Shown in pieces: positions 1 to 62,148 of a stretch of 64,000 nt of DNA. Source of the DNA: Yuukianura sp. NJ FZ-2021 (taxonomy: Eukaryota); NCBI GenBank assembly GCA_046563655.1, contig CM102285.1:5332001-5396000 (forward strand), read 5' to 3'. Position numbers and translations under genes: made by a program. The first letter of the stretch is position 1, and each line of letters opens with the position of its first letter. The notes beneath the pieces are model-generated. The model worked only from the letters and a program-made list of their open reading frames with translations, had not been told where the DNA came from and did no database searches.

Positions 1-350
1 ACTTTCTTCCCCAGCCAGTTGGGTAGCTGGCTGGCGTATTAACGACTTGTATAAAAGATTCACTGCTCTCCGCGCTTGGCGTAGGTGAAACCGAACGACT
101 AGAAATATTCCGTGAAGGAACGGGTTGAGGGACGGTGTGCCGTCACCTCGGAAATGGTGTAAATTTTGACCTAACCGCTTTGAGGGTGAAGTCGCGACCA
201 CTCGAGAGAGGCGATGACGTAGGACAGAGGTTTTTCTTCTACACCTGTCGCATACCCCGAGGAGCGAAACACAACGAGACTACAAACGAAGCAATGAAAC
301 AAATTACCGAACCTTGGCGGTTCAACCCTGTTGCAGGATACCTGGACGGT

Positions 351-1413
351 ATGACTCTACGGATGCTCCTTGTACTTTGCGTCGGGACGACGCTTGTTGC
401 AGAGGTCGCCGGGACGATGATGTGCCCATGGGCACTGGCGACACGAATTCGACGGAGTCCGGTGAACCCACACCGGTGGACCAAGAGGAACCTCACGTGG
501 ACCCTTGGACCTACCCCATATGACATGGACCGAGAAGAAGCACTGGCGCCAGCCTGGCGTTCGTGAAGTGGCAACTTTACTCCAACTTCACCTTTACTTA
601 CGTGGAGGGGAATGCTGATATCCCCATTACCTTCGAACACGGAATTCATGATGACGCTAGTGACGGACGTGGTGGCACACTAGCCCACGCCCACTATCCA
701 GCATCAGTTATGGGCGGACAAATCCACCTAGACGCCAACGAGACTTGGTCTCTCGGAGAGGACGACGAACACGTCAATTTATTTTCGGTACTCCTACACG
801 AAACGCCTTGGCCTTGCCACACACTCGTGCCATAGGATCTGTGATGACAGCCTGGTACCAGTTCTGGCCGCACGTTACCGAAACAGGAGTCCCCGACGAA
901 GAAGCTCTGAAGGTCCTATACCCACCAGGGTTCATCGACGAAGGGCCGGATGGAGAAAATATCCGAGGCCTGAGTACACTGTGGTACGACCATGTTGGTT
1001 ATCTCAATGGGGACCACCTCCTGTTCCACGGGAAAAGTCACGTTAGAGTTACAGGAGCTGGGACACTACTTCCTACTCCAGTGCAGAATGGCGATTTCTT
1101 CGAGGACTTCCCGCCGGACCGCCGAATCAACTTCACAGTCGGCGTCACGAGTTACCTCTATGTTATGGTTGACGACCAAATCGGAGTATATTCATCAGAC
1201 GGCCACCTAATCACACCAGGACTCAAGCACCGAAGTATCTTTGGCATTACGCACCCAGTTTTGGGATACTTCCCGTCAGAACACACCCTCTGGATCAAGT
1301 TGACCACTGGATGGAGGCCGCTATACCTAGAGAAGGGCATGATACAAAATCGCCTTCGACATTGCCTTCATAATCGTGTCAAAGTTCAACGCTTTTGTCA
1401 TAGACCCTACTAA
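351..1413 (+). pseudogene. Intronless matrix metalloproteinase (M10A), frameshifted, inside an LTR element
   Basis: Joining ORFs 135-566, 563-835 and 745-1413 gives a hydrophobic signal (MLLVLCVGTTLVAEVAG), an RIRR furin-like site, RWTKRNLTW, KWQLYSNFTF..ADIPITF, DGRGGTLAHAHYP, GGQIHLDANETW, NLFSVLLHE, ALALPH and the Met-turn SVMTAWY. A possible hemopexin-like segment follows. There is a frameshift near 545-565 and a deletion inside the HExxHxxGxxH motif near 803. Confidence 0.85.
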
Positions 1414-2320
1414 CCCGGACACGCACGAGCCGCTACAAAACTTGTACAAATCCACGGCGGTCGTTAAGTTATGTTACCGTGGAGGAAACCAACTGAAATG
1501 GATAGAGAGGGATTTTGGAGTAATCCCAATCGGAGAGATTGATATTGAAACTATACGCCTACACACCGACAGTCTGCCGTGTCACGCGTCACCGACGCAA
1601 ATTCGGAACAAGTTCCTTTCAACACTTGAGCTGCCCTTGGGATTTCCACACGCTGTTCCAAATTTGGATGTTAACGCTATGAAAACTGTGGTCGTAACAA
1701 TTGTGAAACTTTGGGGTGACATCTCCGAGCAATTACACAACCTGGACACTCTGGAAATTCAGGCCCTGATTCAGAAGATGCTTAACAGCACACACGAGCA
1801 AACTGCAGACCAGTTCCGGCTGACTCATTTCTTTACGCATGTTTCGGTACTCAACGTCAAGGATACAAGGATCCGACTAAGCCTAATTTCCGTGGCCCGG
1901 CAGCTCAATCTGACAACAACCGTATTTTGTCAGGACTAAGAGACTTGGAAAACAGAGACGGAGGCAGAATTTTTGCGAGAACTACTGCAGAAAGTCCGAA
2001 CCTTGTCGCGATCGGATGGATTGGACCCAGTACAACATGCATTAATAGTTCCACACCTCGCCGCGTGGTGGCGTGATTGCCGAGTGCGGCCTGAAACCGT
2101 CACGAGGCCTGTTGTAGTACCACGCCGGGGCCCGTATGCAACGCCCATTCGCCCCACCAGTGCCCGCACGCCACCACCAAACGACGCCAGACACCCCACC
2201 ACCGCTCCACCATCCCTCATGTCACGGATCCACGCATTGGAGCAACAACATCTGGAGCTCAGCCGCCCTAGGTCCGAAAGGAGGCTTTTCGAGCTTTTGT
2301 CGGGACGACAAAAAAAATAG
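1343..2320 (+). pseudogene. Rrp6/RNase D (DEDDy)-like accessory ORF, copy 1, one premature stop at 1937-1939
   Basis: ORFs 1376-1939 and 1973-2320 are in the same frame and colinear with the ORF at 7340-8239 (QD*ETWK vs IDYDAWR). Motifs are KIAFDI, AFVIDP and LYKSTAVVKLCYRGGNQLKWIERDFGV. Confidence 0.6.
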
Positions 2321-2331
2321 GCGTTGGAGAG

Positions 2332-2548
2332 TGTTGCAGCAGTATTAATTCAAGATTTATTTTCACAACTTACTTTCACTAAGCCAAGGTCACACGTACA
2401 CTTAGTCACTTAGTCGCTAAGGGACCCCAGCACTTGTATTTAGTCACTAAGCAGGAAGTGTTAAAGCAAGGCCAGGTAATTAAAACAAAACCGCAAGGCC
2501 AACTTGATTAATGAATTAGCCCAATTAAGCCGACCACAGCCGCCGCTA
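2332..2548 (+). mobile_element. Truncated 3' LTR (family A)
   Basis: Starts TGTTGC right after GTCGGGACGA...GGAGAG (gypsy-type pre-LTR/PPT region). Contains the shared core AAAACCRCAAGGCC..TTAGCCCAATTA..CCACAGCC. Confidence 0.75.
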
Positions 2549-2824
2549 TATTGAAATTAAAATATGAAAATTTTGAGGAACATTACAGTGGATTCGCTTG
2601 AACTGAAGACGGAAAATGAGAACAGAAGAAAGACAACGGACACACAGGATGTGATAACACCCTTCTTAAAATTTAAGCTGAGACAATGTTTATTCGTTAG
2701 GGAGTGTGAGGGCCAGAAAATTCTCCCTCACCAACTTCCCTCCCCCCATCATAGATTAGGCTAAGTCACCGTACAAACCAGATTGGCAATAAATGAGACA
2801 GCCAGCATTTGCACAGCAACTTAA

Positions 2825-2920
2825 CAAGTACCAACGTTCCTCGGCTGTACTGAGTACAACCGCCGCTTCATCAAGAACTATAGCCAAATTGCTAAACCCC
2901 TGACCGAGCTCACCAAAGGT
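2825..2920 (+). mobile_element. Ty3/gypsy reverse transcriptase thumb fragment
   Basis: Translates [30 protein letters not shown], matching the gypsy FLG..YYRRFI..A.PL..L motif. Confidence 0.8.
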
Positions 2921-5687
2921 GCTTTAGGAGTAGCTAGATTGGACGGAATTATGTGACTAGCCCGGTCTAAAGTTCATTTGAAAAATCGGACACCTGCACA
3001 AAATCCCTTGATTGATCATTTCCTGAACGTCATCTAGGTCACATTAATTAGTCATTTCCTAACTATCAAACCTCCAATTTTTTAAAATGGATGAAAACCC
3101 GCCAAAACGCGTGAAAAAAAATGCCTGGGTAAACAACAACTTTCTCGCCAAAAATACATGCGTCACTAAAAATTATTCCATGCACTAAACCATAAATTAA
3201 ACCTTTTAATTCCAATTAGTCATTTCCGGTCTTACCTAACCATTACCGGTAACTGAAGGTCACAAAACAAAAAATCACTAATTTGTTCGGGAGAAATTTT
3301 GAATTTTTTTTATGTGGCAGGTCAAATTTCTCCGAATCAAGGTCATTGAAGGTCAAAAATGAGCTTGAAATTTATTAAGTTTTCTTTTTGTTAAAATTTA
3401 AGCCGGTTAATGTGTCATGAAATTGGTCTAATTGGTCTAATTATGGGTTAATTAAAAGTTCCATCGAAAAAGGACAAACAAACAGTTTTAGTTTAACCTT
3501 TGACAATTAGAAAACAATTAGAAAACTGTCATAACTTTGACAGCGTTAACTTTGGAGAACGTTTTATAGAGTCTCACTTGGCATACAAGTTTTCAAAACA
3601 TAAAACAATAGTTTTTGTTAAGGAAGGACAGTCTGACACCTCTTCCGACTCAAGTGATGAAGCCGATGGAGGGCTTACAAGACGCTATTGGCGTGCACAC
3701 ATTAAGCCCATACCCTACCTACGTCCAAGGACAGCGGGAATCCGAAAAGCATTACAAACGTAAAAATTAAATGTAACTCTGTCATAAGGTTTTATATTAT
3801 TTCTTTTATTTGTTAGTTCCTGCACATTCAGTCACACAATCATCATCATGATGCTGAGTATGGGGTGGAGGGAAGGTCACCCTATTGGAAAGCAAGAGAA
3901 TGGCTACGCTATCCTGTAAGAAATAAACAAATCAGTTTAAAAATTCATTCTTTGGTTATAATTTCCAAATTTACCGGAATTATAGTGTTGGTATTTTCTA
4001 GATCAACACGGCCGGTGGAGAGAAATAGGGAGAGTATTTGTATGGACGCGGCTTCGGAGCGCAGGAGTAACTTTTACATCAGTCACAATCTGTAATTCTT
4101 TTTTAGCACATATTCTTGTCAATATTTTTGTTGTAACTTCTGTTAATGAATCCATCAAGGTCGTTGAACAAATGATATGAAATCAATAAACATTTTGAAG
4201 TTTTATGCGTATGTACTTTTTAAAACTGTTCTTTGAAAACAATAATTTATATTTGGTCAATTCCACTTTTCTCTTCGTAAAATTCGAAGACATGTAATCC
4301 CCTGTGCAATCATAGGATCTTCCCTCATCTAAAATTTTTGAACATATGAAGAAAAAAAATATTCTTAGTATACAAGCATTTTTTCGAACGTCTAAACTCA
4401 ATTAGCGATTTCCTCATTACAAAGCATTTTACTAGAGCTTGAACTCAATTGGCGATTTCCTTATTATAAAACATTAATCGAATTAAGCTGATCCTATTTA
4501 ACTCAGAACAAAATTGAATTTTCACACATTCAAATTCTAATATGTACATCACTTCAATTTGTTGCCTCTACTATTGGAGTTGTGACCTTTAGGCTCTAAA
4601 GCGTTTTTGTACTGTTGTTGAACCAATAGATTACAATTCCATCATAGAGGATTCATCATCTGGATTCAACATTTTGGAAATTAGGACTTAAACAAGAACT
4701 CTACATTATCATTACTCAATTGTCCTTAAAAGTTATTTTAAAATTTAAGACTGTTGATTACAACGATAATACAAATATTAACTACAATCCAGTTGTTTCG
4801 CAAAAATAGCGGAAAAGCGCCGTATGGACTGAATTCGTCCCAATAATCTCACAGATTATACTTTAAAAATAATCTATGTAATAACAAATTCATTTAATAG
4901 TTTTACATGCTAAATCTCAATGCCAGAATGTTCGAGAAAAAAAATTTGTTTTATTTGTTAAATCTCCATGCCCAGGTGTTTGAAAAAATATATATTAAAT
5001 TCTGATAAGTACTACAGTACAATTGGTGTTTTTACAATCTATGGCACAGTTGTACTTATTAGAATTTGAAAAAAGAATCACCATAATTATTCTAAAAAAC
5101 CGTAACCGTTAATTCGTATACCTAATTTTATGTAAATTGGAAACTGTTACATTTACGCTTGTTCTAATACCATTCACAAGCTAACAACTACTACTACTTA
5201 CTGAAAAGTCTGAAACAGGAACATTTTTACCAAAAAGCTCATTTCTTTAGAATAAAATCTTAAGTATTTCCGATACTACAAATGTCTTAATTAGACATAA
5301 TTTATTGAAACTCGTGCAAAGTCATGTAATTGAAGGAAAGTTACAAAAAAAAGAAAACAGTGAAAGGTCAAGTGAAGTGAACACTTGGAATTTTTTTCAA
5401 CTCCATAAACGCTCTCTTCATAACAAAAAATCAACTTTTCCCGCCAAATTTAATAGTTCATGTTTAAGTGTCAGTTTTTAGGTTTTAAATGACGTTACTG
5501 CTGTTCAAGAATGGAAAAAACGTTTACAATAGATTCATTTTACTTTTTACCAAAATAAATTTTCAAAGAATGGAAAAAAGTTCACAATAGATTCATTTTA
5601 CTTTTTACCAAAATAAATTTTCCAAAAAAATAAAGCAAAAAGAAGAAAGTCATTTTTTTTTAAATTTCAGTAGTGGATGATTCGAAA

Positions 5688-6278
5688 TGTTGCATCAGTA
5701 ACTAGTAATTTTGTTGCACTTTCACTTCACAATGTCAAGGTCGCACATTCACCACTTAGTCACTAAGCACAGTTAGTCACTAAGAGGAAACAGAACCAAG
5801 GCCTATTCTATTGAAGGGAAAACCACAAGGCCAATTCTATTAGCTAATTAAGCCCAATTAGCACAACCACAGCCAGCGCCGCTAATGCGGTTTATGACCG
5901 AATTCTCTTGTAAAAACCACTCTAATTAGACACCTCCAATCTAGGCAATTTAGAATTTCAGTTAAATAGCCGGGAAATGCAGTGTAGAAAGTAAGTCAGT
6001 AAGCCAGTAAACAAAAGCTAAGCAGAGAAAGGAAGACTAGAGAAGGAAGCCGGAAGCACTAGCACTAAAAGTACTTAGACCAATAGAGAGCACAGTTCAG
6101 AAAAATCAGCAACCAGAGGTATGAGTACACACAAATGTAAACATTTATTTATTTGCACTCCACGACTAAGACGAACTCACGCCAAGATTGGGGCCTTAAG
6201 ACCCTTGACCCCTCCGGGAACATTCGCTGACCCTGTGGGCACTTCTTTATTGACATACGTTAAAATCTCAACGTAACA
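5688..6278 (+). mobile_element. Complete 5' LTR (family A)
   Basis: TGTTGC...CGTAACA ends, family A core, CCTTAAGACCCTTGACCCC block shared with the other LTRs, followed by a PBS. Confidence 0.85.
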
Positions 6279-6280
6279 AT

Positions 6281-6294
6281 TGGTGCATTTGCCG
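6281..6294 (+). promoter_or_regulatory. Primer-binding site complementary to the tRNA-Gly 3' end
   Basis: TGGTGCATTTGCCG lies 2 nt after the LTR end and matches 13/14 to TGGTGCATTGGCCG, the complement of the typical animal tRNA-Gly(GCC) 3' end. Confidence 0.75.
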
Positions 6295-6653
6295 ACATGC
6301 CCTCTACTGCTGTTTTCTCTTTCTTTGAATCAATAGTCACTATTGTTGTAAACTTTAGTTACTGTAACTATACCTTAAATATGATGAATGAATGCGTGTG
6401 TGAATAACATAACGATACAATAACATATTATAACAATAGCAGATTAGAACAATACCGACTGCGTCGAGTGAATTCCTACGACACCACATGCTACGAAGTT
6501 AACAAAGACTTGGAACTCTCCCCCCTCTGGTGAGCAAGAGGTGAAGGGCATCGAACAGGTACTGTGGAGAAGGTGACCCTTGTAGAGGCGAAAGTCCTTC
6601 ACTGTTACCACATACGCTCTGCCGAAGGCCAAAGCTCACCTCATAGGGCAATG

Positions 6654-6760
6654 ATGATGATGTGCCCATGGGCGCTGGCGACACAAACTCGACGGACTCC
6701 GGTGAACCCTCACCGGTGGACCAAGAGGAACCTCACCTGGACCCTTGGACATACATCGTA
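6654..6760 (+). pseudogene. Fragment of a second MMP copy (N-terminal part)
   Basis: MMCPWALATQTRRTPVNPHRWTKRNLTWTLG, about 90% nucleotide identity to 414-520. Confidence 0.8.
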
Positions 6761-7339
6761 CAACGAGCGAGAACGAGCTCCTTAGTCAACCTTGCCGAGC
6801 GGATCGAGACGGAGTACGAGACGATCAACGAACTCCACCAGACCACCCAACTACCGGAAGCCCCACCGAGATCCTATTATGATTACCCACCACCAGAAAC
6901 AAGACCGGTTTCGTTTGATGTTGAGCCTAATACGGGAACCAGCACCAATTCCGACCCAGAATATGACTACAAAGAGCGCGCTCGACTCGATTGACAAACC
7001 CGATGACGAACCAGCGACAAATAACCGATACAAACTTGTTTTAGTTTTGACCTTCTCAAATACACAGTAAACCTCTTCAGCAAATTGGACGCTGGCATCG
7101 CATCACAACTTCGCTACTCGTAAACACATATCAAGCACGTCACCGACGGACAACGACTGGCTTGCCCTGAACGACTAGGAGTCCTCAACATTAATGAAAG
7201 CAAGGTGTACGACTCCCGTTGGATGCCAGACTGGCCCATACCGACATGCACCCCGGACACCTTGACAACGAAACGAGAAGTCGCAGACCACGCGCCGAAG
7301 CCATCGGAATGTTTCCCGTAGTCTTCTCGTGAACGTGGA

Positions 7340-8239
7340 GTGAATGCTTTCATCATCGATCCCCTGGATACCGACACCCACGAACCGGTGAGAGCCCTAT
7401 TCAAGTCACCACACGTCATGAAGATCTGTTACGGTGGAAAGATCCAGCAGCAGTGGATCGAACGCGACTTCGGAATTATCCCACGCAGCGTCTCGGACAT
7501 CAAACCGATTCGCATACACGTTGCTGATTTACCAGACCACGCTACGCCGTCCGACATCCGGCGATTTTTCGAGTCCGACGTAGACTTCATGTTCGGTTTC
7601 CTTCGCAACACTCAAAATCAAGACCGCGAACTCATGTTGGATGCCACCAAGACGGTCGCCTTACTCTGGAGGGACATCGACCGTTATTTACAAGACGGTC
7701 ATGCTTCTGGAGGAAGAGACATTCAGATGCTCCTGCAACAGATGCTCATCAGCACACACGAGCAGACAGTAGAGCCGTTCCGCCTCAAGCTCTTCTTTTG
7801 GGACACTCCACCAGTTGACTTTGGGGAGGCACGGATCCGCGCCAGCATTGTCTATGTGACATTGTGCCGCGCCATGGACCTACCAACCAGCCTGTTTCAG
7901 ATAGATTACGACGCGTGGAGAAACGGTTCGGACTATGCATTCATCAGTGGACTACAGCAGAAAATTTCCATGTTCCCGAAACCTGACGTGATGACCGAGG
8001 CTCGGCAACTCATTCCCCCGTTGTTCATCTGGTTCGGGACCGACTTCGGGATAGGCACGCGCCCAGCCGATACACACCCCACCGTACCCACCGCTCACAG
8101 ACCCAGACGCATGACACAATACTCCGCTACAAGTCGACAACCCCTCGCGCTTCGTGACCTACCGCCGCCTGCCGTTCCTATCCCCGATTTAGTACGACAA
8201 GTCCAGGATCTGCAGACAAGGATTCAGGAACTCGAATGA
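7340..8239 (+). CDS. Rrp6/RNase D-like accessory ORF, copy 2 (299 open codons, 5' part disrupted)
   Basis: AFIIDPL..LFKSPHVMKICYGGKIQQQWIERDFGI..SVSDI aligns by eye to Rrp6 DFIIDTL..DPAIVKVFHGADSDIEWLQKDFGL..NMFDT. It has a Pro-rich linker and a coiled-coil C-terminus, and ends just before the PPT/3' LTR. Confidence 0.6.
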   Translation: MNAFIIDPLDTDTHEPVRALFKSPHVMKICYGGKIQQQWIERDFGIIPRSVSDIKPIRIHVADLPDHATPSDIRRFFESDVDFMFGFLRNTQNQDRELMLDATKTVALLWRDIDRYLQDGHASGGRDIQMLLQQMLISTHEQTVEPFRLKLFFWDTPPVDFGEARIRASIVYVTLCRAMDLPTSLFQIDYDAWRNGSDYAFISGLQQKISMFPKPDVMTEARQLIPPLFIWFGTDFGIGTRPADTHPTVPTAHRPRRMTQYSATSRQPLALRDLPPPAVPIPDLVRQVQDLQTRIQELE

Positions 8240-8326
8240 CAGCGCCCTAGACAAGAATAAGTCATCACATCCGCAACTACCATTCATTGTATTGTCGGGA
8301 CGAAAAATAGATTAGGTCGTGGACAG

Positions 8327-9979
8327 TGTTGCACATGCACTTTGTTAAGTCAGCCTAAGTCAATTCACTTTCACTTTCACAATGTTAAGGTTAAAAACTG
8401 CACTTGGCCAGTGTCACTTAGTTGCCATCCCCGGAAACAATTCATGCATTAGAGACAAAAAGTAAAAACCGTCAGCATAACGTAGCTGGCTGTCCAAGGT
8501 TTTAGCGTCATATTGGCGCAATGCAAGTATCCGTGGAGGACGCCGTTTCAAAATCTTAAATATGATGCAATTCCGGAGGCGTCAAATTGAGGTTTGGAAC
8601 ATACTCCAATTTGACGCATGCAAAAGATAGAAAAAAAACTCTTCTCCGGAGTTTCGAACCAACAACCTTCACTTCTCTCTTATTGCTGATCTATCACACT
8701 ACAAACTAAGCTACGAATGATTTATTGAAAAACTAGTCGAAAGTTGTACTACTTATTCCATGCATTCGGAACTTAAAATTCTTACGACTAAAATCAAGAA
8801 AAAAACTTATAACCTGACATCAATTATGTGATTAATTGGTTAAGTTACGGTAAGTATGGTCACCTTTGTACACATACAGACAAAGTGACGTAATTATCAG
8901 CTGTCACCGGCATAGTTAGGTGGATTCAGCATCTCTACATGTGAGCGAGCAGTTTAAATGCTCTAAATGACACGGAACCATGTATGTCTTATTTGATTAG
9001 TTATAAAAATTAGCATCCAATTCGATTGTTAATTGGTCATGTGGGATACGAAACTATAAGTTTATCCGAAGTTTTTAGACGATGTTTGTCCCGCAACAAA
9101 AGAACGTGTAGCAATGACATTGGTTGTTTAGTGTTCTAATAATTGCGTCTGGAAGCTGTCGGGACGGACGCATCATATTGACTGAAGGAAGCTTCACTGC
9201 AATTTTACGCACTTTCCATGCAATACAAATCTTGCAATATTTGAATGATTGGAAACAAGCGTCAGAATCATGCAATTATAATTGCGCCTCTTTTGCAGCG
9301 AATCGAAGGCGTAAATTTGTGCGCCTCATTTCTGTCCTCACAACAACATGCATGCAACTAACTCAGTTTTTGCAGAAATATAACGCCAGGCTTACCCTAC
9401 TCATAATGATGCCAGCGTGAGCGCATCATTTTTGAATCAAAAATGTGTAATCGTCATTGTAATTCCCAAAACTGACGCAATGCTGACGGTTCATACCCAA
9501 AAATTGTTTCCGGGGATGTACTTATCGTTAGTCACTAACAGGAACAAAAGCAAGGCCAAGACGATTGAGATGGAAACCACAAGGCCAAACTTATTAATTA
9601 ATTTAGCACAATTAGCTCAACCACAGCCTCTGCCGGTAATGCGGTTTTAGGACAGAACCTACCCGGAAACCACACAAATTAACAACCCCCAATTAGGAAT
9701 TATGTTAAATACCCGGTAGTCACTGCTTAGAAGTAAGAAAGGTCAGAAGTCTAAAGAAGGCAAGGAACCAGCCCTACTAAGTACCCTAACAAAGCACAGT
9801 TACAGCAGCAGAAGGTATGGTCACACTCATTTATATTTACTCATTTATTTCAAAACCTTACACAGACAAAGGACGGACTCACGCCAGGAAGGGGTCCTTA
9901 AGACCCTTGACCCCTTGGGCAAGATGACTGTTGACCCCAAGGGCCCTTCCAACGGCATTACGCGAATTTCGACGTAACA
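8327..9979 (+). mobile_element. 3' LTR (family A) split by a DNA transposon
   Basis: TGTTGC at 8327 follows GTCGGGACGA..GGACAG. The LTR resumes at 9519 with the family core and ends CGTAACA at 9979. Confidence 0.8.
8426..9518. mobile_element. Non-autonomous DNA transposon (~1.1 kb) inserted in the LTR
   Basis: 17-bp TIR CATCCCCGGAAACAATT plus subterminal inverted AACCGTCAGCA. No clean TSD (TGC vs TAC). Confidence 0.8.
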
Positions 9980-12566
9980 CACATGAGGAGTCAAAACCAC
10001 AAGCACAAAATCAAGAAATTCTAAAAGTGCTATTTTGACAAAGAGTCTTACTAAAACCGCTAACACCAACTCCCTAAATTCATACCTTGTAAAATTATGT
10101 TTTGAGAAAAACTGCAGACAGCTGAAAATAAATTGGTAGAAAGTTTTGTAAAGAAAATTTATTAGAACTAGTTTTTTTCGTAAAATGATCAAAGCCACGG
10201 ACGAAAAATTAGTGTCATAGTATGTATAGATGTTTTAAAAGTCGTTAAGCCATAGCCATTTTTTTTAAAGATTCCATTTGAAACAATCAACGGATGCTGA
10301 TCGAAAGGGGAGGAGGATCGTTGGGAAGTAGGGAAGTAGGTAGTGGGAACCTAACCTGCACAAAATCTTTTAATTGGTCATTTCCGGTCTCTAAATTAAC
10401 TGACCATTTCTGGTGTACAACAAACGTCATAGGTCTAGGAGCAATAAGGCACTAACTAGTCATTTACGGTAGACCAAGGCACTTCAAGAGGTATATAAAC
10501 AGCAGAGGCTGGGATCTAAGGGTGTTGGATTTTCCCTATTCTCATCTTGTACGTTACCCTTTAACAATTACGGAAACCATAAAAGTATGATAACTGACCA
10601 GTTGCTGTATATCTGTAAGACATAGCGTCATCCTCTTTGGGATTTAAACTACAGCCCGATCAATTAATACACCGTTACTAAGAATTCCAATTCTCACGGC
10701 CCGTCCTTTCACAGGATATTTCATTGTCGGTCCCATCCATCATATTCATGTGATTCATGTTCGGCCGATGCTCGGATATCCTTATCCAACTTGCGTTGTC
10801 TTATGGTCGCTCATATTGGAGAGACTAACTGTCCTCTTGACTTCGGTCATCTTGGATTTTCTTCAGACATTTCTGACACGTCTCAAATAGTCATTAATAT
10901 GTGTCGTGGTTCTCCCACAGGAAGGAGAATTACTGCAAAAGAAACAAAACCCCTTCACAGGATTCAAGGGTTTTTCCCAAAATTCCACCAGTTCGGCTAA
11001 ATTCAATATTTGAATGTTAGCCGTCACATTTAAATGTTCCAAGTGAATTAAAAACAAAGTTCACAAGAGCATTTTCTGTGTTACCACTCAACACCCGGAA
11101 TTGCGGTGGTATAATTATCTTGTGGTTTCATTACTTAAAGGATTAAGTGGACATCTCGTTTCATGGTAGTGCCCAGAACGGTAGAAACCTTCCCTAGGCC
11201 TCCGGTTTTCTTAACAAAAAAAAAACGCGTACGTTAATTCGACTTGTAGACAAAAAGTATGCCTATGAGCGCATGCTTAATTTCATTAGCTACTTTTACA
11301 CGCACAAAAAAAAACTAGTGGGAGCTAGGGTTGATTATTTTAAGCCTATAAGTCCAGACACTCATCCAGTGGTCGGGAAATTTTCGTTACGTAGTTGTAA
11401 ATTTGTAAATTCTAGCAACCTCAGACAGCGAGGCATGAATAATGGGTAGTCGTACATTTCCTATTACGCCCGGTGTGAGTCGCCAGGTTCCCTGGGCACA
11501 TGGCACTCACGGAGACCTGGTAAAGAAATACAATACCCCCCAAATTATAAAAGAAATCACTTAGCATTTTTGCTTCATCTAACTATTGCAGGATGGTTAG
11601 GTTAACCTAACCTAACCTTTTAAGTCACTTATTAGTGGGAACGCCGTTCTTTACTCATGACTGGGCCGCGTTTGCTGGGCTATTTATGCAGAAGGCGGGA
11701 AATCCAATCACACTGGAAATGAATGCTCTTGTTAATCTTGTAAAGTTTGAAGTGCGGCGCCATAGGTGCGCTTTTTAGACTGAGCGGGTCTTGTTCGCGG
11801 GAAACCGACCATGGGCGTCGGTAGACGACAGACGACCAAGGTTATGCGCTTTAATACATAAAAAGAGTCTTGAGGAATTTCTAAGAATTAATGAAGTGGA
11901 GGCGGCGACTGTCAACGTTCATCGTTGGATAGAGGAGGAGCGAACCATCGCACTATCTGATAATGCAGCCGAAGGGGAGGAAATGGTGCCGGTATCATAC
12001 TCTCAAGTCTCTCTGAGACGGAGCCTGATTTAACACTTTAAAACAAATTCAATAAACATAATTCGAGTTCCTACAGGGAAATTATTAAAAACAAAAAAAA
12101 AAGGATTTTGCTGCCAACTGTATAATGCTAACCTGTTGCTTATCGTCTATATTTTTTCAAGACGTCTGGGATAATGACTGGTAAGCTACTTTTTAAATTT
12201 AATTCTGTGACTAATTTTTTTCCTCTTAGGAAACCACTATGAGGAACAGGTAGAACGTCTTCTGGGTGCAATGCTGGTAATGATCAACTGGAACGGTCCG
12301 GTTACTATGGAAGGAGTAACTGGTCTAACCTCACATACTACCGGGAACATCCGCAACACTGCGCAAAAGCGGTAACCTTTATCGCAGTTATTGGAAAACG
12401 GAATTGTGTGATGGGCTGTCATTCGACGAGCTTTTTAAATCACAAATTGACAACAGCCACACTTCCCATCTTACAATTTATGATGAGGCGGCAATGTTCA
12501 TTAAAAATTTTTTGGGTGAATTACTGCAGGAAACTTATGAAGCAAATAAATAAAAACTTAGTCCAT

Positions 12567-12960
12567 TGTAGCACCAGCACTTAGTTCACTCAATTGTTGC
12601 ACTTGAACTGCTCAACTTTCACTTAGTTACTAAGAGGGACTTACAACAACGCCAATTTCGTTCGGAGTGAAAACCACAAGGCCAATTGGCCACAAGGCCA
12701 AGTGATAGAAAATTATTAATTAATTTTTATCCAATTAGCAGAACCACAGCCAACGCCGGTAATCGGTGTAGGGACCAAAAACTGTTATCCTCTACCTGTA
12801 ATTAACAAGCACTTAGCAACCTTAATTGGCTAATTAAGCACCTAGCATAAATACTGTTCAGTCACTGCTTAGAAAGAAGAGAGGACAGAAGTCAGTAAGT
12901 CAGTAAGAGGACCAGCAATCAATACGTACCACTAACAGCTAAGTACCCCGGTACTTCACA
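12567..12960 (+). mobile_element. Truncated LTR (family A)
   Basis: TGTAGC start; AAAACCACAAGGCC, CCAATTAGC, CCACAGCC..GCCGGTAAT and GTCACTGCTTAGAA are shared with the LTR half at 9519-9979. Confidence 0.75.
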
Positions 12961-12982
12961 ACAAATAAACCTCGATTTAAAG

Positions 12983-14206
12983 ATGACACTGCGCTTAGAC
13001 AACAACGAGCCAATTGTTTACGTCAGAGCAAGTGAAATTCCAAAGAGCTCATTTTGCAAATTTTGGAGCAAGCTGGGCGGAGATTCCTAGTCGCCGGCTA
13101 TAGAAAACTTACGCGTGACAACCTACATCACTTTGCGCTTGGCACTGGGACTTCGGGGATTCCATAAAACAGCAACATGGAGCTGGAGCATCAGTTTATA
13201 TTTTCTGAAAATCAAGTATCATTATGGACCCTAGACGCCCGTCACCCATGGCAACGGTTCATGTCGTACGAAGATATTCGGAATACAATAATCAACATTT
13301 TCAAATACTATGACATTCTGAAAGAGCCCGAATTTGAATTGTTCAAGTGGACTAGTTACATGGTTATGGACAATGCCAGCTTTCCATTTCCGGCCTCGGT
13401 AGTATTTTAAGCAGTGCACAGTGGCTAGTTTTCATCAGTCTCAACTTGTGCTTCAAGATGGAAACACCTACTTCTTCTCTTCCTGTCCTCCCAATGCACC
13501 GTACCATTACCTCCAACAACCTTGTGAATAGTGAAAGTGAAAAATCATTTCCTAGAAAAAAATTTTTACGTCTAAATTCAAAGCTTTCAACTCTGCTGTG
13601 GTGGACGTCATCGATCAAGGCCGAACTTTTGGTTTCTGGTTTTCAGGGCCAAAACGTGCGCTTCCTTTTCCTTATGAAACTTGTGCCGCACTGTGGAACC
13701 TAATGATCACAACTTCAAAAAACCCAAAGCTTCTCGAGTCGAGAATGAATATGAGGATCATGGACATGGCGGCAATTGCGCCGAATTTGGTGGAATGTGA
13801 AAACGCCCTCGTCGTGTGCCCCAGACCCTACATCATGTTCAAGGCCATGAAAAAATTTTGATTTCCGGAAAAAAGTGGTGGAGTCTTTGACGTCATCCGA
13901 AACTATCGACTATTTACTGGAGAAAACGACGAATACGAGGAGTTTAGAGTTTTGGAGGAGGAGACGACTTTGGATGCAGTGATAGATAATTTCAAATTGT
14001 ACTTTGTGGTTTCAGAGAACATTAAAAATGTGCTCGGTAGCAAATTGGAAACTTTACAAAAAGTGTCTATTGTGATTATTATTCACTACGACCAAATCCA
14101 AGTTGATCAGGTTCACAGGCTGTACGAGAAATTCAAGGAAAAGTTGGTGTTCATCGGTCATCCCATACACAGGGGGACAAACGCAAAATTGGTCATTTCT
14201 AGTTGA
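12983..14206 (+). pseudogene. Decayed ~400-codon intronless ORF of unknown function
   Basis: ATG at 12983, then successive protein-like pieces (13177-13410, 13598-13861, 13952-14206). The last two are in frame across one stop. Confidence 0.45.
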
Positions 14207-15563
14207 TAAGTGTTATCCTGTTAGCACAAGCAAATTGCAATGAAATGTACTCTAGAATATTTTTTTTTACTTTTGTAGCCTTGTAAATTGATAAACTAAA
14301 ATTGAGCCTTGTAAATTTTGTCTTTTACTTGGTTTTGTTTTAGGATAATCCATTTTATATTCTAGTGTAGTTATTCTTTTCTTTTCAAACTTTCTGTACA
14401 GCCACTCACAAAAAAAAATAAAACCCAGCGTGGGCAAAACTGTGTTTGGCTTCAAGTTTATTTTTAACTTCTTTATAAAAGTTGGCGTTTGAATTTTTTC
14501 TTTGGATGGAGTCGCACACCAGAATATGTGCCAAAGAAACTTGCATTTGCGCCTATCTGTATGTAGCTTTATTGTCGTTTGTATTTTTTGGATTAATTTG
14601 GTTTTTCACGATTCCTGGATTCTACAGTGGCTGTGGCAATGTACGTTCCAATCACAGTTGATCCAGATCATCTTCATCAGCTAACACCCTCGCAAACTAA
14701 TCAAGCACACTGCATTAAACCTAGTTAGGTCATACGGTTAGGCTAAGCACTTGGTTATGCGTTGAGCAATTGGCAAGCAATAAATCAGAACATCTTAGCA
14801 CTCGAACTTAACAAGTTATGGTGCCGAAAGATGTTCCTAGGGAAATCTAGAGTCAATCGACCAGTGTTTAAAAATCGACTGACAGTGATGCGAGAACGGG
14901 TATGTCCAAAATCCACCAAAACAAACATATTTGTTTAAATTCTGAAACCACCCGAGTATCAAAAAGAAAATTAGGCATAACTTCGGATTTCTCCGAGGGA
15001 TTACATACATCAAGAACGAGTTCTGTCAGTTCCACACACGACGTAGATATCAAAAGTGCATCACATTCGGATTAAGATCCCCTAAGCTGATTCTGTCAAT
15101 GATCATAATCTCTTAGTCGAGAACCTTCCAAGTGACTCTCACCATAAGCTGACTACACTACTGTTTCCAGTAGATATTGATCAATTGATCGAAACACGAT
15201 TAGACAACCTTATCCTTGCCTTACGCGAATGGCAGATGCCCCACGAGTCACAATAAGAATTCCGGCAATGACGTCATTGATCGACCTTATGCTTAAACCA
15301 GCCCACGACCGGAACTACGAAAGCCAAACTGTTTTCTCTAGCTTAAAATCAGTTTTCAGCGAATCTTGACACGTCGGCAGACCACGACTCAATTTGACGG
15401 AATTAGCCAAGTCAAGGATGTGATGGTGTCCAAATTAATACCCATCATCTCACATTCAACTAACCCCGTCATAATCATCTGGAATGTTAGCCTTACGATG
15501 GGAATCAGGTTTTTACTCTACAAACAGCTGCTAGCCTATCTATGTATGTGTAACAAACGATAG

Positions 15564-15790
15564 TGTACCTAGCTAATAATGCGCACTATAATCTACTTAA
15601 GCTACCTGCACGCACGCACGGAAAAAAGACGCTAATTAACTAACGTAAATTAGAGTTCCTGTTTCGACAAGTTTATGCACCACAATTAACGGAAGAATTC
15701 GCTTAGCAACACCATCACCGCCAGAAATGATTTGCTAATTAAAAGCACACCATTGGTTTAATATATAATCCCCGTTACACCGGCGTTATA
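15564..15790 (+). mobile_element. LTR-like repeat fragment (family B)
   Basis: Homologous to 19530-19750: GCACGC..GCACGGA, GCTTAGCAACACCA and TATATAATCCC..GTT.CACCGGCG. Confidence 0.55.
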
Positions 15791-16115
15791 TATATATGTT
15801 TATTGGGGGGAGCAGTCACCTATATTTAGGTGACTGACTCACGCTGAGCATTCACTTATACGAAATATTTCAACATCAACCCCTTTAGAAACAGCGTTAT
15901 TTTTTGTCCTTTGTGACCAAACACTCATTATGGTAATCCAATTGCTATCATTATACGGAGGTCGTCCGTATTCTGATAAACAAATCAGATTGGATGAGTA
16001 TTTTTTGTCTATGGACTGGTTCAAGGAGTAGTAATTTGTAACCACCACAGACTGCGAAGCTCTTACCTGCTGCTCCAAAGGATTACAGACCTCTGACTCA
16101 AGGCCAGCTTGGTAC

Positions 16116-16350
16116 TGTAACACAGCAGGCAGTTCTTGCAGAAGCGGTCGCCCCAACACACACTCCTTTATCTTGGGGTGTCCACAGAGCAGCCCCAGGA
16201 AAAGAGAGAAGTCCAGCACTTGTCTCCCTGCTTCGGGACAGGGAGAACCCACGGCCTCGACTTCTTTTTTCCTTCCCAGGGGCTGGTTGCGAACTCACGT
16301 CGGCCAGTGGAAAAGCATTGACGGCTTAACCACTGAGCCAACTCGCCCCT
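16116..16350 (-). mobile_element. tRNA-derived SINE-like or LTR-like segment
   Basis: The minus strand reads GGGGCGAGTTGGCTCAGTGGTTAAG (A box) ... GTGAGTTCGCAACC (B box-like); the segment ends TGTTACA. Confidence 0.4.
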
Positions 16351-16843
16351 GCACCGGGGTTAGAACTTAAGTATATTCTGCGCCGATTATCAGAAAACAG
16401 TGAAAAGACACGGCAAATCAGCATGGGCTTTTAGCATACTGACAAAATACCGTCCTATATTGCTACTCCGCCAGTTTGAAAAACTCGCAATAATTTGCCT
16501 ACAACAGCTTTGTTAATAGAAGAAGAACACTTCTTTGTTGTGATTTAAACAAAAACTAAACCTTTTTTTTATAGTTTGTACGTATTATCCAAGGAAAGGC
16601 AAAGGCATCTAAGTTAAGTAACTATTTTTTTTATAAATTTCGAATTTTATTTTAATTTTTAGTCCTTGATGAATTTTTTTTTCTGAATCAAACGACGCTG
16701 GGAGTTTTGGATCAGTATATAACTTTTGTAATTACTTTTTTTTTAAGTCCATTTCCTCCAGCACACAAAAAACTGAGTTACAAAAAAAGAAAGTTGTTAC
16801 ACAGTATTTTTCAAAAAAACCATAAAATGGCTTTTCTTTTCAG

Positions 16844-17160
16844 TTTTCCGCGGAACAGAAGGTTGTTGACAATATAGTATGGCTATATAAATCAGTTGCA
16901 TATCCAGATTTTGCACGTGCTGACGGACGGTTTGTTACATTTAATCGTTTCGACACGGACTGGACGATGGCTGTAGGCTGTAGTTAACAAGTTTATCAAG
17001 TATGGATTTTTTGTTAAACATTCTTATCCAAAAATTATGTTACAATGTCATCATTGTGGGGTGGAATGATTCCATGTCCTACCAAACTACAAAGCTCGGT
17101 TCCGGCACAACGGGAGACTTTGCCCCCTCGTCACAATAGATTTTTGGACTCCACCAAATT
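16844..17160 (+). pseudogene. BIR (IAP repeat)-like domain, disrupted
   Basis: Removing a 7-bp tandem duplication (GGCTGTA, ~16969-16982) gives AYPDFARADGRFVTF..KFIKYGFF..LQCHHCGVE*FHVLPNYKARFRHNGRLCPLV, i.e. C-x2-C-x16-H-x4-C. Preceded by a pyrimidine-rich CAG acceptor. Confidence 0.6.
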
Positions 17161-17334
17161 AAATTTCTAATAGGAAATGTGGGAGAGACTGCAAAATATG
17201 AAACCAAATCCTTCCCAATGGAGCAGACGTATTGATTATTCTATACTTTCATGTTGCACTCTGTACAATGCATGCGGAATTGTTTAATTTAACTTTAATA
17301 TAACTTTACTTCCACCTTTTCCTCTGCCACGTTG

Positions 17335-17620
17335 TGGACTTCCCCAGGCAGTTGGGTAGCTGGTTGTTGTACTAGGACTTGTCTAGAGGACTCACTCGCT
17401 ATCCGCGTTCGCCGTGGATGAAACCGAAGACCGATAGGTAAATTTTCCGTGAAGGAACGGTTTCAAGGACGGTGCCCATCTCCTTGGCAACGGTGTAACA
17501 ATAAACCGGGCTGCAGTACAAGAAAGTCCCAGACCCTGCAGCATGCGATCGAAGTCACCTTGAGGGCGGAGTCGCGACCACTCAAGAGAGGTGATAACGC
17601 GGGATAAGAGACTTAGGACT
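17335..17620 (-). repeat. Internal block homologous to 1-235; probable antisense ORF relic
   Basis: Shared CAGTTGGGTAGCTGG, TTCCGTGAAGGAACGG and AGTCGCGACCACTC.AGAGAGG. Minus-strand translations are SRVITSLEWSRLRPQ vs SYVIASLEWSRLHPQ. Confidence 0.65.
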
Positions 17621-17756
17621 GAGGAAGCACCCAAACCCATAAAGCAATCCCACCAACGCTGCCACGCCCATGAGCAACTGGTGAGCGCTAGCCATTCCGC
17701 CTCCGAATACCCCATAACGTTCCACCGACGGCAACTGGGTTTTCGCGAGAAACGCA

Positions 17757-18322
17757 TGTTACACCCACATTTAGAGTACTTAGAGCACTAAGACACGAGG
17801 CACTTAGTCACCAAGCACTTAGATCCCAAGCAGCAAGTGTCACTGCAAGGAAATGTTAATTAAGGCAAAACCACAAGGCCAAATGTATTAATTAATTAGC
17901 CCAATTAACCTAACCACAGCCTCTGCCGGTAATGCGGTTTGAGCCTAGAATTTTCTAGTTAACCACAGCCCTTAATTGAGCAATTAGGAGTAATTAACAT
18001 TTTAGTATAAATGCGGAAGAGGAATTGTTAGTTGGTACCTCCTAGCTGTCACCCCTTGAAGCGCAGGGTGTGCGCGGGGGAGGAGAGGTCACGATGGAGA
18101 AAGGTGAACTGCACAATAAAAAGAAGAAATAAAAATTATAGTTTCACAAGTCAAAACGGCTTAGACTGCCACCCAGGTAACCCTTACATTTAAACAAGAG
18201 AGGAACTCAAAACCGGAAGGGGAGTCCTTAAGACTCTTGATTCTTGCCGTGACTACAACGGGACTCATGCCAAGGACCCATTCTTACGGGTAATTACGAA
18301 TGACAATAAATCAGACGTAACA
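17757..18322 (+). mobile_element. Solo LTR (family A)
   Basis: Perfect TGTTAC...GTAACA ends, family core, TATAAA at ~18007 and AATAAA signals. Flanks CGCA/CGCT are a possible 4-bp TSD with one mismatch. Confidence 0.85.
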
Positions 18323-18544
18323 CGCTCAAGACAAATTTCACCGGGCGATGGCAGAGAAGATAAAAATCCAAATAAAAATACAAGGTCAGGTTAGGTTAGG
18401 CTAACCTAACCCTCCTATACCGATTTGCCTCCAATCTATTCTGTTTCCACAAGAAGGGTAATGGACCAAACAGCTTCGAGAAACCCGGCCCGGGAAAGCT
18501 TATTACCACCGTATATTTTTTGCGCGGCAACAGGGTGAAACTCC

Positions 18545-20000: not shown

Positions 20001-20692
20001 CAGGGGTTTCGAACTCACATGGAACGAAATTAGGCCTATTTTAGTTTATTTCACTTGTGTTTTTTTTTCAGTCTCAGGTGCATTGCATTTTATTGCATTG
20101 CGCGTGGAAAAACACAAGAAAGTGAAACAAATGAAAAATTTGCAAGAATTTGAAAAAAAAAACCGAAACGAAGGACTAAGGACTGCGTTGGTAAATTGCG
20201 CTCACTTCAGGCTAATTTGGCATTGCGCTTATTAGCGCTGGAATTCAGGGTAAACACTTCTGAAATTTTTCATATTGTTGCATGCCATGCAAATCTGCGC
20301 CCAAGCCTTTTAAATGTTTGTCACTAAAAGAAGATGCATTTTGTTGTTAACTGTTACGAAGTAAAAATATTGGCATTTGAGTTTCAGATACTGCTCCAAA
20401 CCTCAAACTTCAGATGAAGCTCTAAAGAGAATAAAGCTAAGAGGAAAGCTTAAAAGTTTGTCAGTAAACTTCCTATCCACTAATTTGGTGTCAACTGTCA
20501 TGTAAAATTATCACACTTAATTAACTCTGCATACCCTATGTCAAGTGCTATGGAATAGTAACTTGGAGTAAGCCAAATTAAGAATAAAAACATTAAAGAG
20601 TATGTTAGAAGTGCAGATTGGTGTCAAGATGTGCTTGGGTCAAAATGTGCTGAAACTTGTAAATGAAGGTAGTACTTGAAATGATGATGATT

Positions 20693-42803: not shown

Positions 42804-58685
<15,882 letters not shown>

Positions 58686-60029: not shown

Positions 60030-60404
60030 TGAAGATAGGGTCAGAGTTCACGAATTTTGTGTTTACAATTTACAATTTCGTATTACGTCACCAAGAGTTG
60101 GGGCAACCTGAGAATTGAGACTAAGAAATGGCTCACCCACTTCGTCTGAGTGAAAAAAATTTTTTTTTTCTTCGCCTGACAGTTTTAGAAAAACCACGAA
60201 TGGTTCTCAAATTTGAAATTTAACGCAGTGATTCGCGAGTTAGGCTGAGTTGTGCAAAATTTCAATCGTAAAGAATCCACCCGGTTGGGTTTTTCATGAT
60301 TACGTAGTTCTAAATTCTCAATTCTCAGTCGTTGCCATGTCTACAAAACGTTCTTTGGCGTTGTTTTTATTGACCTGATGTCTCTCCTTAAGCACAAAAA
60401 TAAC

Positions 60405-62125: not shown

Positions 62126-62148
62126 GGCGATGGTCCCCTTCCCCACTA

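Follow-up and report, generated by a model that had tools for sequence, protein, structure and literature searches.

What kind of element could bring together long terminal repeats (LTRs), a matrixin (MMP) gene and an exonuclease-like open reading frame is the question raised by positions 1–18322 of the window, the 64,000-nucleotide stretch of Yuukianura sp. NJ FZ-2021 DNA analysed here. The region contains old, broken LTR retrotransposon copies that are clustered and all lie on the + strand. We consider it reasonably likely that they form a nest of defective old copies of a single LTR-retrotransposon family, with the ancestry proposed below for one frame, ORF3, and with a captured MMP. The elements are defective LTR elements, probably non-autonomous, carrying an accessory ORF of a known kind.

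LTRs and junctions of the element family

The LTR family claimed in the first-pass annotation (family A) was borne out, with five same-strand copies found in 2332–18322, all of which begin with TGTTRCA. The three complete LTRs, which end at 6278, 9979 and 18322, all terminate in ACGTAACA, and two core motifs are present in the five copies against chance expectations of 0.18 and 0.06 matches. Pairwise identity among the LTRs is 68–78%. LTR A1 (2332–2549, + strand), the 3′ LTR of copy 1, starts with TGTTGCA, carries the core motifs at 2488 and 2522 and is 75–78% identical to the other copies; the likeness stops at 2549, leaving the first 218 bp. LTR A2 (5688–6278, + strand; 591 bp) extends from TGTTGCA at 5688 to ACGTAACA at 6271–6278; it aligns with the 3′ part of LTR A3 (8327–9979, + strand) at 76% identity and with numerous gaps. 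LTR A3 has the TGTTGCA start and the ACGTAACA end, and contains a 1.1-kb insertion at 8427–9526 that is skipped in contigs from public sequencing runs, with a joint from 8428 to 9527 in all four runs and from 8426 to 9527 in three of the four. LTR A4 (17757–18322, + strand; 566 bp) extends from TGTTACA at 17757 to ACGTAACA at 18315–18322, and LTR A5 (12595–13118, + strand; 3′ end approximate) starts with TGTTGCA at 12595 and has its core motifs at 12671 and 12732.

A 16-mer starting with TGG that resembles a primer-binding site (6281–6296, + strand) lies 2 bases 3′ of LTR A2. At the other end of the internal region, GTCGGGACGA, an exact 10-mer found at both 2299 and 8294, is followed by a polypurine tract in copy 1 (2299–2331, + strand; 18 of 22 purines in 2310–2331) and in copy 2 (8294–8326, + strand; 16 of 23 purines in 8304–8326), and both tracts abut the TGTTGCA of an LTR, at 2332 and 8327, respectively. 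A junction-like motif lacking a polypurine tract (376–417, + strand) consists of GTCGGGACGAC, 3 bases, TGTTGCAG and a near-copy of the 10-mer, so arranged that the exact 10-mer is at 381, TGTTGCA at 395 and the one-mismatch copy at 408. The GTCGGGACGAC...TGTTGCAG junction flanks the block of MMP and ORF3 on both sides (381–402 and 2299–2339), and the 376–417 motif aligns to the junction between LTR A4 and the non-coding block upstream of it. This block (1–394, + strand), which is cut by the start of the window, aligns to 17334–17756 (+ strand), where its other copy, assigned to copy 3, runs straight into LTR A4. The recurrence near 17335–17620 noted in the first-pass annotation is confirmed by segments of 78.5% (6–162 and 17339–17498, E = 8.7e-27) and 87.5% identity (180–219 and 17560–17599); the indels between the two blocks, of 4 and 44 nt, are not multiples of three.

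Additional genomic copies of the element are present in the public-run contigs. Contigs from other copies connect LTR ends (9955, 9963 and 18303) to 6272–6273, and others track the window up to 6295 and diverge until 6548. Target-site duplications were found neither around the A2–A3 unit (flanks CGAAA and CACAT) nor around LTR A4 (ACGCA and CGCTC). Copy 2, the sole copy bounded by two LTRs, has an interior of just 2.05 kb; since the LTRs are only 68–78% identical and none of them forms a demonstrated true pair, it may be a recombinant.

No gag, reverse transcriptase (RT) or integrase family was detected by Pfam among 150 ORFs of at least 50 aa in 1–20324, or in + strand read-through scans of 2550–5692, 9980–13602 and 18323–21003, so that the element class is assigned from LTR features alone. 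With these genes missing and a two-LTR interior of that size, the proposed large virus-like gypsy lineage is not sustained. As gag and pol are found in none of the copies, movement would have required the enzymes of an autonomous relative, and the family as a whole may be non-autonomous.

ORF3 adjoins the polypurine tract

In two long-diverged copies, ORF3 occupies the 3′-terminal part of the internal region, directly upstream of the polypurine tract. In copy 1 (1343–2320, + strand) it contains one in-frame stop at 1937–1939, after which the frame resumes in 1940–2320, aligns with the C-terminus of copy 2 and terminates within the polypurine tract. In copy 2 (7322–8239, + strand) it comprises 305 open codons, with its first Met (residue 33) lying past the start of the conserved part and five same-frame stops in the 330 nt upstream. 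An open frame of this length between such diverged LTRs is unexpected under neutral decay. The translations of 1343–1936 and 7322–8236 share 44% amino acid identity over 185 aa (E = 2e-49). Across 290 codons, pN is 0.41 and pS 0.77, with saturated synonymous sites, and identities at the three codon positions are 0.53, 0.62 and 0.355, showing conservation of the first and second positions. Judged from these codon patterns, ORF3 is an old, fast-evolving coding sequence with strong purifying selection in its past, and it would represent a 3′ accessory gene belonging to the family itself.

ORF3 shows a weak but repeatable alignment to RNase D/Rrp6-type exonucleases, in their ExoII region. Copy 2 matched PF01612 at E = 0.0012, its 19.2 bits lying below the cut-off of 23.6, and was the only one of the two copies to do so. 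In hhalign, the two-copy profile aligned to residues 45–100 of RNase D (probability 50%, E = 1.6e-4) and copy 1 alone to residues 47–100 in the same register (13%, E = 2.2e-3), compared with 0.8% and E = 0.066 for an unrelated control ORF. The earlier label 'Rrp6-like' is therefore retained as a sub-threshold family match in one copy together with a weak profile–profile match. The ExoII catalytic Asp is replaced in both copies, which makes the suggested role in RNA-surveillance evasion speculative. The ancestor of ORF3 was most likely a DEDDy (RNase D/Rrp6-type) 3′–5′ exonuclease that has lost at least the ExoII catalytic Asp, and the product, if active at all, would bind rather than cut.

No homologue of ORF3 was found among 1.84 billion protein representatives, a search for proteins of near length gave none, and the PDB gave no match at E ≤ 10. 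The fold model (mean pLDDT 38.9) is too poor to be of use; it is all-helical at low confidence, with a C-terminal helix at residues 288–304. Such a model, the lack of sequence homologues that is common for gag, and the position of ORF3 as the sole long ORF between A2 and A3 would suit a gag-like structural protein of a non-autonomous LTR–primer-binding site–ORF–polypurine tract–LTR element, the exonuclease match being due to chance. This explanation appears unlikely: both ORF3 copies, and not the control ORF, matched one common segment of RNase D, Pfam detected no Retrotrans_gag or zinc-knuckle family, and in copy 1 ORF3 follows the MMP and has its end in the polypurine tract, a 3′ accessory position and not that of gag.

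The intact frame of copy 2 could also be read as a domesticated, single-copy host gene that arose from the element and was kept by selection while its LTRs decayed. It has stayed open despite the gapped, 76% identity of its LTRs, its past selection was strong, and none of the variants listed from the public runs falls in 2281–4349 or 5033–9743. However, the frame lacks an ATG ahead of its conserved part and follows a run of same-frame stops, A2 and A3 are not necessarily a pair, and ORF3 has no homologue in any searched database; we regard domestication as improbable.

A matrixin gene inside the element unit

The accessory content with which ORF3 is associated is an intronless, broken MMP gene in copy 1 (351–1413, + strand; frames 351–566, 524–835 and 664–1413). 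Positions 524–832 (+ strand) match Pfam Peptidase_M10 (PF00413; E = 2.8e-20, 73.2 bits, cut-off 24), and a PDB search gave 111 chains at E ≤ 1e-3, with MMP-1 (1fbl_A, E = 3.7e-12) and MMP-16 as the best matches and 45–48% identity to animal (vertebrate) MMPs over 84 aa, as counted on the PDB alignment. An ATG at 351 opens a hydrophobic, signal-peptide-like N-terminus, and a Cys and an RIRR site precede RWTKRNLTWTL. The catalytic domain is uninterrupted in the DNA, with no introns, and frame changes occur near 540–552 and 800–806, the second inside the HExxH zinc motif. The C-terminal ~190 aa have no match in Pfam or the PDB.

Copy 2 retains an MMP remnant (6653–6779, + strand) of ~42 codons with a stop at its end, corresponding to residues 23–64 (78.6% identity over 42 aa by tblastn; 92% DNA identity over 102 nt between 413–514 and 6653–6754) and situated between ORF3 and LTR A2 with its primer-binding-like site. 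The likeness has an identical 5′ limit in both copies (413 and 6653), upstream of which the sequences are unlike. The order of MMP, Rrp6-like ORF, polypurine tract and LTR is common to the two copies, as had been claimed, with the MMP of copy 2 reduced to this remnant. Variant letters across 448–1300 appear in up to 7 contigs of one run, among the variants listed, and the 6 synonymous and 7 non-synonymous changes listed between MMP copies form a small, selected sample that shows no clear constraint on the MMP.

These features bear on the proposal that a duplicated host locus supplied both the MMP and the ORF, as genes or pseudogenes, and that LTRs inserted nearby, with no cargo involved. Animal MMPs are the closest relatives, segmental duplication could yield several copies, and neither target-site duplications nor a true LTR pair were found. 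Against this, the join of ORF end, GTCGGGACGA, purine tract and TGTTGCA is retained in two copies whose ORF synonymous sites are saturated, the copy 2 MMP piece sits inside the element unit, the MMP is intronless, and GC3 is 0.52–0.61 in the cargo ORFs versus 0.37–0.47 in six host exons in the window. We consider such a host locus quite improbable.

The cassette proposed earlier holds in two of its parts, the MMP inside the element unit and the exonuclease-like ORF, and is not supported for IAP. The 'BIR-like' stretch (16977–17159, + strand) is a CxxC...H...C pattern spanning a stop; 16800–17341, translated in three frames with stops read as X, gave no Pfam family at E ≤ 1, and PDB sequences at E ≤ 10 included no BIR chain and one unrelated match. 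MMP and IAP genes are known from baculoviruses and their relatives, and the cargo has a higher G+C content than the surrounding sequence, as might be expected of integrated fragments of a large DNA virus (MMP, IAP and exonuclease) that LTR elements invaded later. This origin is highly unlikely, given the missing BIR signal, the absence of any other viral gene family from the 150 ORFs, the end of ORF3 in the element's own polypurine tract, and scans of IMG/VR for ORF3 relatives and MMP patterns and of JGI metagenome contigs for relatives, all of which were empty. The earlier link to large DNA viruses is also at odds with the likeness to animal MMPs.

Under the preferred reading of a captured MMP in an LTR-element family, one sublineage would have gained an MMP copy, 5′-truncated and intronless, from a metazoan-type mRNA, likely through template switching during reverse transcription. 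The insertion would have been upstream of ORF3 and downstream of an element-derived ATG and hydrophobic leader, with a secreted, furin-cleavable protease as the predicted product. The copies within the window are dead: two frame changes disrupt the MMP, one of them in its zinc motif, a stop interrupts ORF3 in copy 1, and copy 2 lacks nearly all of the MMP and a start codon ahead of the conserved part of ORF3.

Comparison with known elements

Granuloviruses carry MMP genes, likewise a case of an invertebrate mobile or viral genome with a matrixin; theirs is a DNA-virus context, to which the empty IMG/VR MMP-pattern scan reveals no likeness here. Non-autonomous LTR elements include the LARD, TRIM and TR-GAG types, and maize Bs1 is a transducing retroelement. 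The present copies share with these an LTR, a primer-binding site, a short pol-less interior enclosing host-derived sequence, a polypurine tract and a second LTR, whereas those plant elements enclose mostly gene fragments and the family described here has one ORF with long-term coding constraint.

LTR retrotransposons can capture ORFs downstream of pol (Arkhipova and Yushenova 2019, PMC6431247), as in planarian Burro, where the ORFs have BCL-2 and TRAF-like domains. The present family resembles these capturing elements as an invertebrate LTR element with host-like accessory or cargo ORFs, although they are full elements with gag and pol and are often giant, whereas the copies here are short, pol-less and decayed. 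The cargo here is an extracellular matrix protease, a type not mentioned for captured-ORF elements in the portion of that article considered here, and an MMP as LTR-element cargo is previously unreported.

A close parallel to ORF3 comes from bdelloid rotifers, in which the Juno and Vesta LTR retrotransposons and the Athena/Terminon elements carry a DEDDy-type exonuclease ORF3 (Rodriguez et al. 2017, PMC5408684). The rotifer ORF3, as described in the parts of that study considered here, has strong exonuclease homology, keeps the invariant residues (DEDD to DEED) and has no coiled coils, whereas the ORF3 reported here is a sub-threshold match with the ExoII Asp replaced in both copies, a predicted C-terminal helix and no pol attached in the window. 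The rotifer authors liken such ORFs to DEDD derivatives that are inactive, EXD1 and Maelstrom among them (PMC5408684). As in Juno and Vesta, an extra ORF of putative RNase D/Rrp6-type exonuclease descent lies in the 3′ portion of the LTR element.

LTR copies, their junctions and the surrounding DNA

Two core motifs of one LTR family each occur five times, all on the forward strand and all inside 2488–17921, against chance expectations of 0.18 and 0.06. The five LTRs to which they belong (A1–A5, all on the forward strand) begin with TGTTGCA or TGTTACA (TGTTRCA) at 2332, 5688, 8327, 12595 and 17757, and the three complete copies end with ACGTAACA at 6278, 9979 and 18322. LTR A2 (5688–6278, 591 bp) and LTR A4 (17757–18322, 566 bp) are uninterrupted; LTR A3 (8327–9979) is complete and carries a 1.1 kb insertion at 8427–9526 that contigs of other genomic copies skip; LTR A1 (2332–2549) is cut off; and LTR A5, which spans 12595 to roughly 13118, is decayed at its 3' end. 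The family therefore has direct LTRs with TG...CA ends, as is typical of LTR retrotransposons, and the complete ones are 566–591 bp long without the insertion. The insertion in A3 is also present elsewhere in the genome, on an 825-nt contig with 5 differences. A 58-bp unit occurs twice at 5507–5622 (96% identical), in an A+T-rich stretch immediately before LTR A2.

The exact 10-mer GTCGGGACGA precedes LTRs A1 and A3 (at 2299 and 8294) and is followed in each case by a purine-rich run that abuts TGTTGCA directly, with 18 purines in 22 positions before A1 (2310–2331) and 16 in 23 before A3 (8304–8326), so that both LTRs are preceded by a polypurine tract. Primer-binding sites begin with TGG, and a 16-mer with this start lies two bases after LTR A2; it may resemble the end of a glycine tRNA. 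Other copies share the sequence up to 6295: their contigs join LTR ends to the same point as the 16-mer after A2, and some match the window exactly to 6295 and then diverge. No tRNA gene was found within the window, and no Rfam family was found in 1–22000. An element of 7.8 kb running from A3 to A4 was considered and dropped, because no primer-binding-like site follows A3.

No target-site duplication was found, as the five bases on either side differ for A2...A3, for A2 alone and for A4 alone. The copies are only 68–78% identical to one another and are therefore either old or derived from different subfamilies; no true LTR pair was found among the five.

The DNA beyond 20 kb contains host exons encoding part of an AMP-binding enzyme (22093–22515, reverse strand), a DM10 domain (28652–29182, forward strand) and the FAT domain of a PIKK kinase (47549–48247, reverse strand), which places the LTR copies in repeat-rich DNA beside eukaryotic host genes; their host is a eukaryote, most likely an animal. 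The FAT-domain exon belongs to a large PIKK-type kinase gene (47549–56347, reverse strand), the exons of which are long and reach 390 codons. The sequence at 31297–31764 suggests a receptor ectodomain followed by a membrane-spanning segment, although it matches no Pfam family. The G+C content is ~0.40 overall, 0.51 in 1–2000 and 0.49 in 6001–8000. Two adjoining tandem satellite arrays occupy the end of the window, one at 60400–62125 with a period of about 360 bp and units 84–93% alike, and one at 62148–64000 with a period of about 231 bp and 95–97% likeness between units one period apart, which continues past the end of the window.

Five public DNA contig sets contain the DNA of the window, and four were compared with it at 80% likeness. 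Summed contig depth is not copy number and was not used as such, and baseline depth (e.g. at 7338–8004 and 16676–17342) means just that no further contig aligned at 80% likeness. In each of the four runs, the depth summed over contigs peaks by a wide margin, within the first 20 kb, on a repeat at 15342–16675, which has many variant contigs, loose ends at 15793–15826 and 16349, and ORFs on both strands in which no Pfam family was found; its segment 15623–15785 is 70% alike to 19580–19748. Just downstream of LTR A5, a decayed frame of ~345 codons (13168–14206) with two frame changes and one stop has no Pfam family and only a faint PDB match to the C-terminal part of VPS25 (E 1), which may be chance.

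The matrixin gene

The segment 524–832 encodes a matrixin (MMP) catalytic domain, which matches PF00413 with 73.2 bits against a cut-off of 24 over profile positions 28–116 of 159 and is matched by 111 PDB MMP chains at E ≤ 1e-3; its identity to MMP-1, counted on the alignment, is about 45–48% over 84 aa. No intron interrupts the domain. The gene (351–1413) starts with an ATG at 351 and a hydrophobic, signal-peptide-like stretch, followed by a Cys, the sequence RIRR and the catalytic domain; a propeptide with a cysteine switch is absent, its place being taken by no more than a short segment with the Cys and RIRR. The 190 aa beyond the catalytic domain match nothing in Pfam or the PDB. A hemopexin domain was considered for this region and dropped, since nothing in Pfam (E ≤ 0.1) or the PDB (E ≤ 1) matches the 249-aa C-terminal frame. 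Of 36 word-sharing candidates among longer proteins, none reached E ≤ 1e-5.

This gene copy is spread over three frames, with frame changes near 540–552 and 800–806. The second change falls within HExxH, the second His of which is encoded in neither frame, and no single frame of copy 1 (the MMP gene, ORF3 and LTR A1) contains the complete HExxHxxGxxH zinc site. In copy 2 (from LTR A2 to LTR A3), a remnant of ~42 codons (6653–6779) with 92% DNA identity to copy 1 is separated from ORF3 by 540 nt of unrelated sequence. The first-pass annotation had placed an MMP segment in both copies; the catalytic domain is borne out in copy 1, and copy 2 retains the remnant only.

ORF3 and its relation to exonucleases

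ORF3 is an exonuclease-like accessory ORF. In copy 2 it comprises 305 open codons (7322–8236), and in copy 1 it is open at 1343–1936 and runs on in the same frame to 2320 past a single stop at 1937–1939. In copy 1 its end falls within the polypurine tract, and in copy 2 it stops 55 nt short of the 10-mer. The two copies are homologous along their whole length (44% identity over 185 aa, E 2e-49). Across the 290 codons of their alignment, the share of identical bases is 0.53, 0.62 and 0.355 at the first, second and third codon position, and pN is 0.41 with a saturated pS of 0.77; the split between the copies is therefore old, and both evolved under constraint as coding sequences for protein. The conserved part opens with NAF(I/V)IDP, and no ATG precedes it in either copy. 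In copy 1 the MMP frame 664–1413 overlaps the start of ORF3 at 1343, and because of this overlap MMP and ORF3 may have formed a single reading frame in intact elements.

A match to PF01612 (DNA_pol_A_exo1) was obtained for residues 6–67 of copy 2 only (E 0.0012, 19.2 bits, below the cut-off of 23.6), and copy 1 had no match to this family at E ≤ 0.1. With hhalign, a profile of the two ORF3 copies aligned to residues 45–100 of an E. coli-type RNase D with a probability of 50% (E 1.6e-4), and copy 1 alone aligned in the same register with a probability of 13% (E 2.2e-3); an unrelated control ORF of 249 aa did not align (probability 0.8%, E 0.066). The RNase D profile in these comparisons was nearly a single sequence, as the relatives found for it were all 88–100% identical. 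Both ORF3 copies have a Gln opposite the catalytic Asp of the RNase D ExoII motif, and ExoI and ExoIII lie outside the aligned region. With the frame uncertain at 1349–1369, the string there was dropped as a definite ExoI motif and is at most an ExoI-like candidate. An AlphaFold2 model built from the two-sequence alignment (mean pLDDT 38.9, pTM 0.25) was too poor for a fold search. The ORF had been called Rrp6-like in the first-pass annotation; what supports the name is the sub-threshold Pfam match of one of the two copies together with the weak RNase D alignment. Judged from the sequence, it is likely but unproven that ORF3 descends from a DEDDy exonuclease and has lost catalysis.

No homologue of ORF3 of near length was found, none appeared at E ≤ 1e-3 among 1.84 billion protein representatives, and no PDB chain matched at E ≤ 10. 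A link to viruses had also been proposed; IMG/VR yielded no relative of ORF3 and no match to the MMP pattern, and JGI metagenome contigs yielded no relative of ORF3. The IAP or BIR domain suggested for 16977–17159 fared no better: three frames matched no Pfam family at E ≤ 1, and no BIR chain turned up among PDB sequences at E ≤ 10; what remains is a CxxC...H...C pattern spanning a stop.

Recombination, autonomy and known accessory genes

The likeness between the MMP sequences begins at the same position in both copies (413 and 6653), and the sequences upstream differ, with an LTR leader in copy 2 and, in copy 1, a non-coding block (1–394) that recurs at 17334–17756 directly before LTR A4; this position is thus a recombination boundary. 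The interior-to-LTR junction string GTCGGGACGAC...TGTTGCAG occurs at 2299–2339 and again, without the purine tract, at 381–402, where it lines up with the point at which the upstream block meets LTR A4. The MMP–ORF3 block is therefore flanked by two versions of one junction, which we take as a putative trace of copy-choice recombination. The 102 nt at 413–514 and 6653–6754 are 92% identical, although the adjoining ORF3 genes are saturated at synonymous sites, and this suggests either that diverged elements exchanged sequence recently or that the stretch is a constrained cis element.

Other genomic copies carry variants of both genes. At single sites in 448–1300 of the MMP gene, up to 7 contigs in one contig set (X2) and 1 in another (X1) have another letter, and ORF3 of copy 1 has variant contigs of 519 nt in X1 and 948 nt in a third set (X3), with 30 and 20–35 differences per piece. 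Some contigs mix copy-2-like and copy-1-like sequence around the 10-mer. Among the printed coding variants, 12 of 26 are synonymous (6 of 13 in MMP and 6 of 13 in ORF3), which is only a hint, as the list is a selected one.

The elements had been described as a large virus-like gypsy lineage, a description that the searches do not sustain: no gag, protease, RT, RNase H or integrase Pfam family was found in the 150 ORFs of at least 50 aa in 1–20324 or in read-through scans of 2550–5692, 9980–13602 and 18323–21003. The read-through scans covered the forward strand, and the ORFs of at least 50 aa alone covered the reverse strand and 13603–16799. A G-patch match in the read-through scans (E 0.0024) was set aside as being at chance level. 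Two short forward-strand peptides resemble parts of Ty3/gypsy pol, one the RT–RNase H link and the other the RT start. They lie at ~2830–2930 and ~19200–19400, 0.5–0.9 kb downstream of A1 and A4 and outside the LTR units; they are too short for Pfam and are tied to the LTR elements by adjacency only. The copies in the window are defective and probably non-autonomous members of one LTR family. Because the window contains dead copies only, they belong to the natural history of transposons rather than to a working system, and the decay of all of them limits the interest of the finding, which we rate as moderate.

Extra genes in LTR retroelements show both the gain of virus-like abilities and host genes turning mobile. 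The capture of ORFs downstream of pol is known in LTR elements, and the planarian element Burro carries apoptosis-related domains, according to PMC6431247. For an MMP within a retrotransposon, a full-text literature search found no publication on the subject by title and abstract, and MMP cargo in an LTR element appears to be new. We consider it unlikely, yet worth stating, that the window samples an LTR lineage that would carry a secreted, furin-activated MMP where errantiviruses carry env, together with an exonuclease-like protein that binds RNA or DNA but has lost catalysis, the two perhaps joined in one long protein. Such an MMP would aid particles or infected cells in crossing basal laminae to the germline. 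It would be the retroelement parallel to the MMPs of insect DNA viruses, taken up from the host in a separate event, and intact, active members of the lineage would reside elsewhere in the genome. Intact copies, if they exist, would make it possible to test a retroelement that carries an enzyme of tissue remodelling.

ORF3 itself represents a known type of accessory gene in a very diverged, probably inactive form. Accessory domains of LTR elements include a DnaQ-like exonuclease, as listed in a 2019 opinion paper (PMC6338049), and DEDDy-type ORF3 genes are described for LTR retrotransposons of bdelloid rotifers in PMC5408684. The rotifer ORF3 proteins keep the invariant residues in that account, whereas in the window ORF3 the ExoII Asp is replaced by Gln. 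The window ORF3 would be a second, far more diverged case after the rotifers and would widen the pattern of exonuclease-type ORF3 genes.
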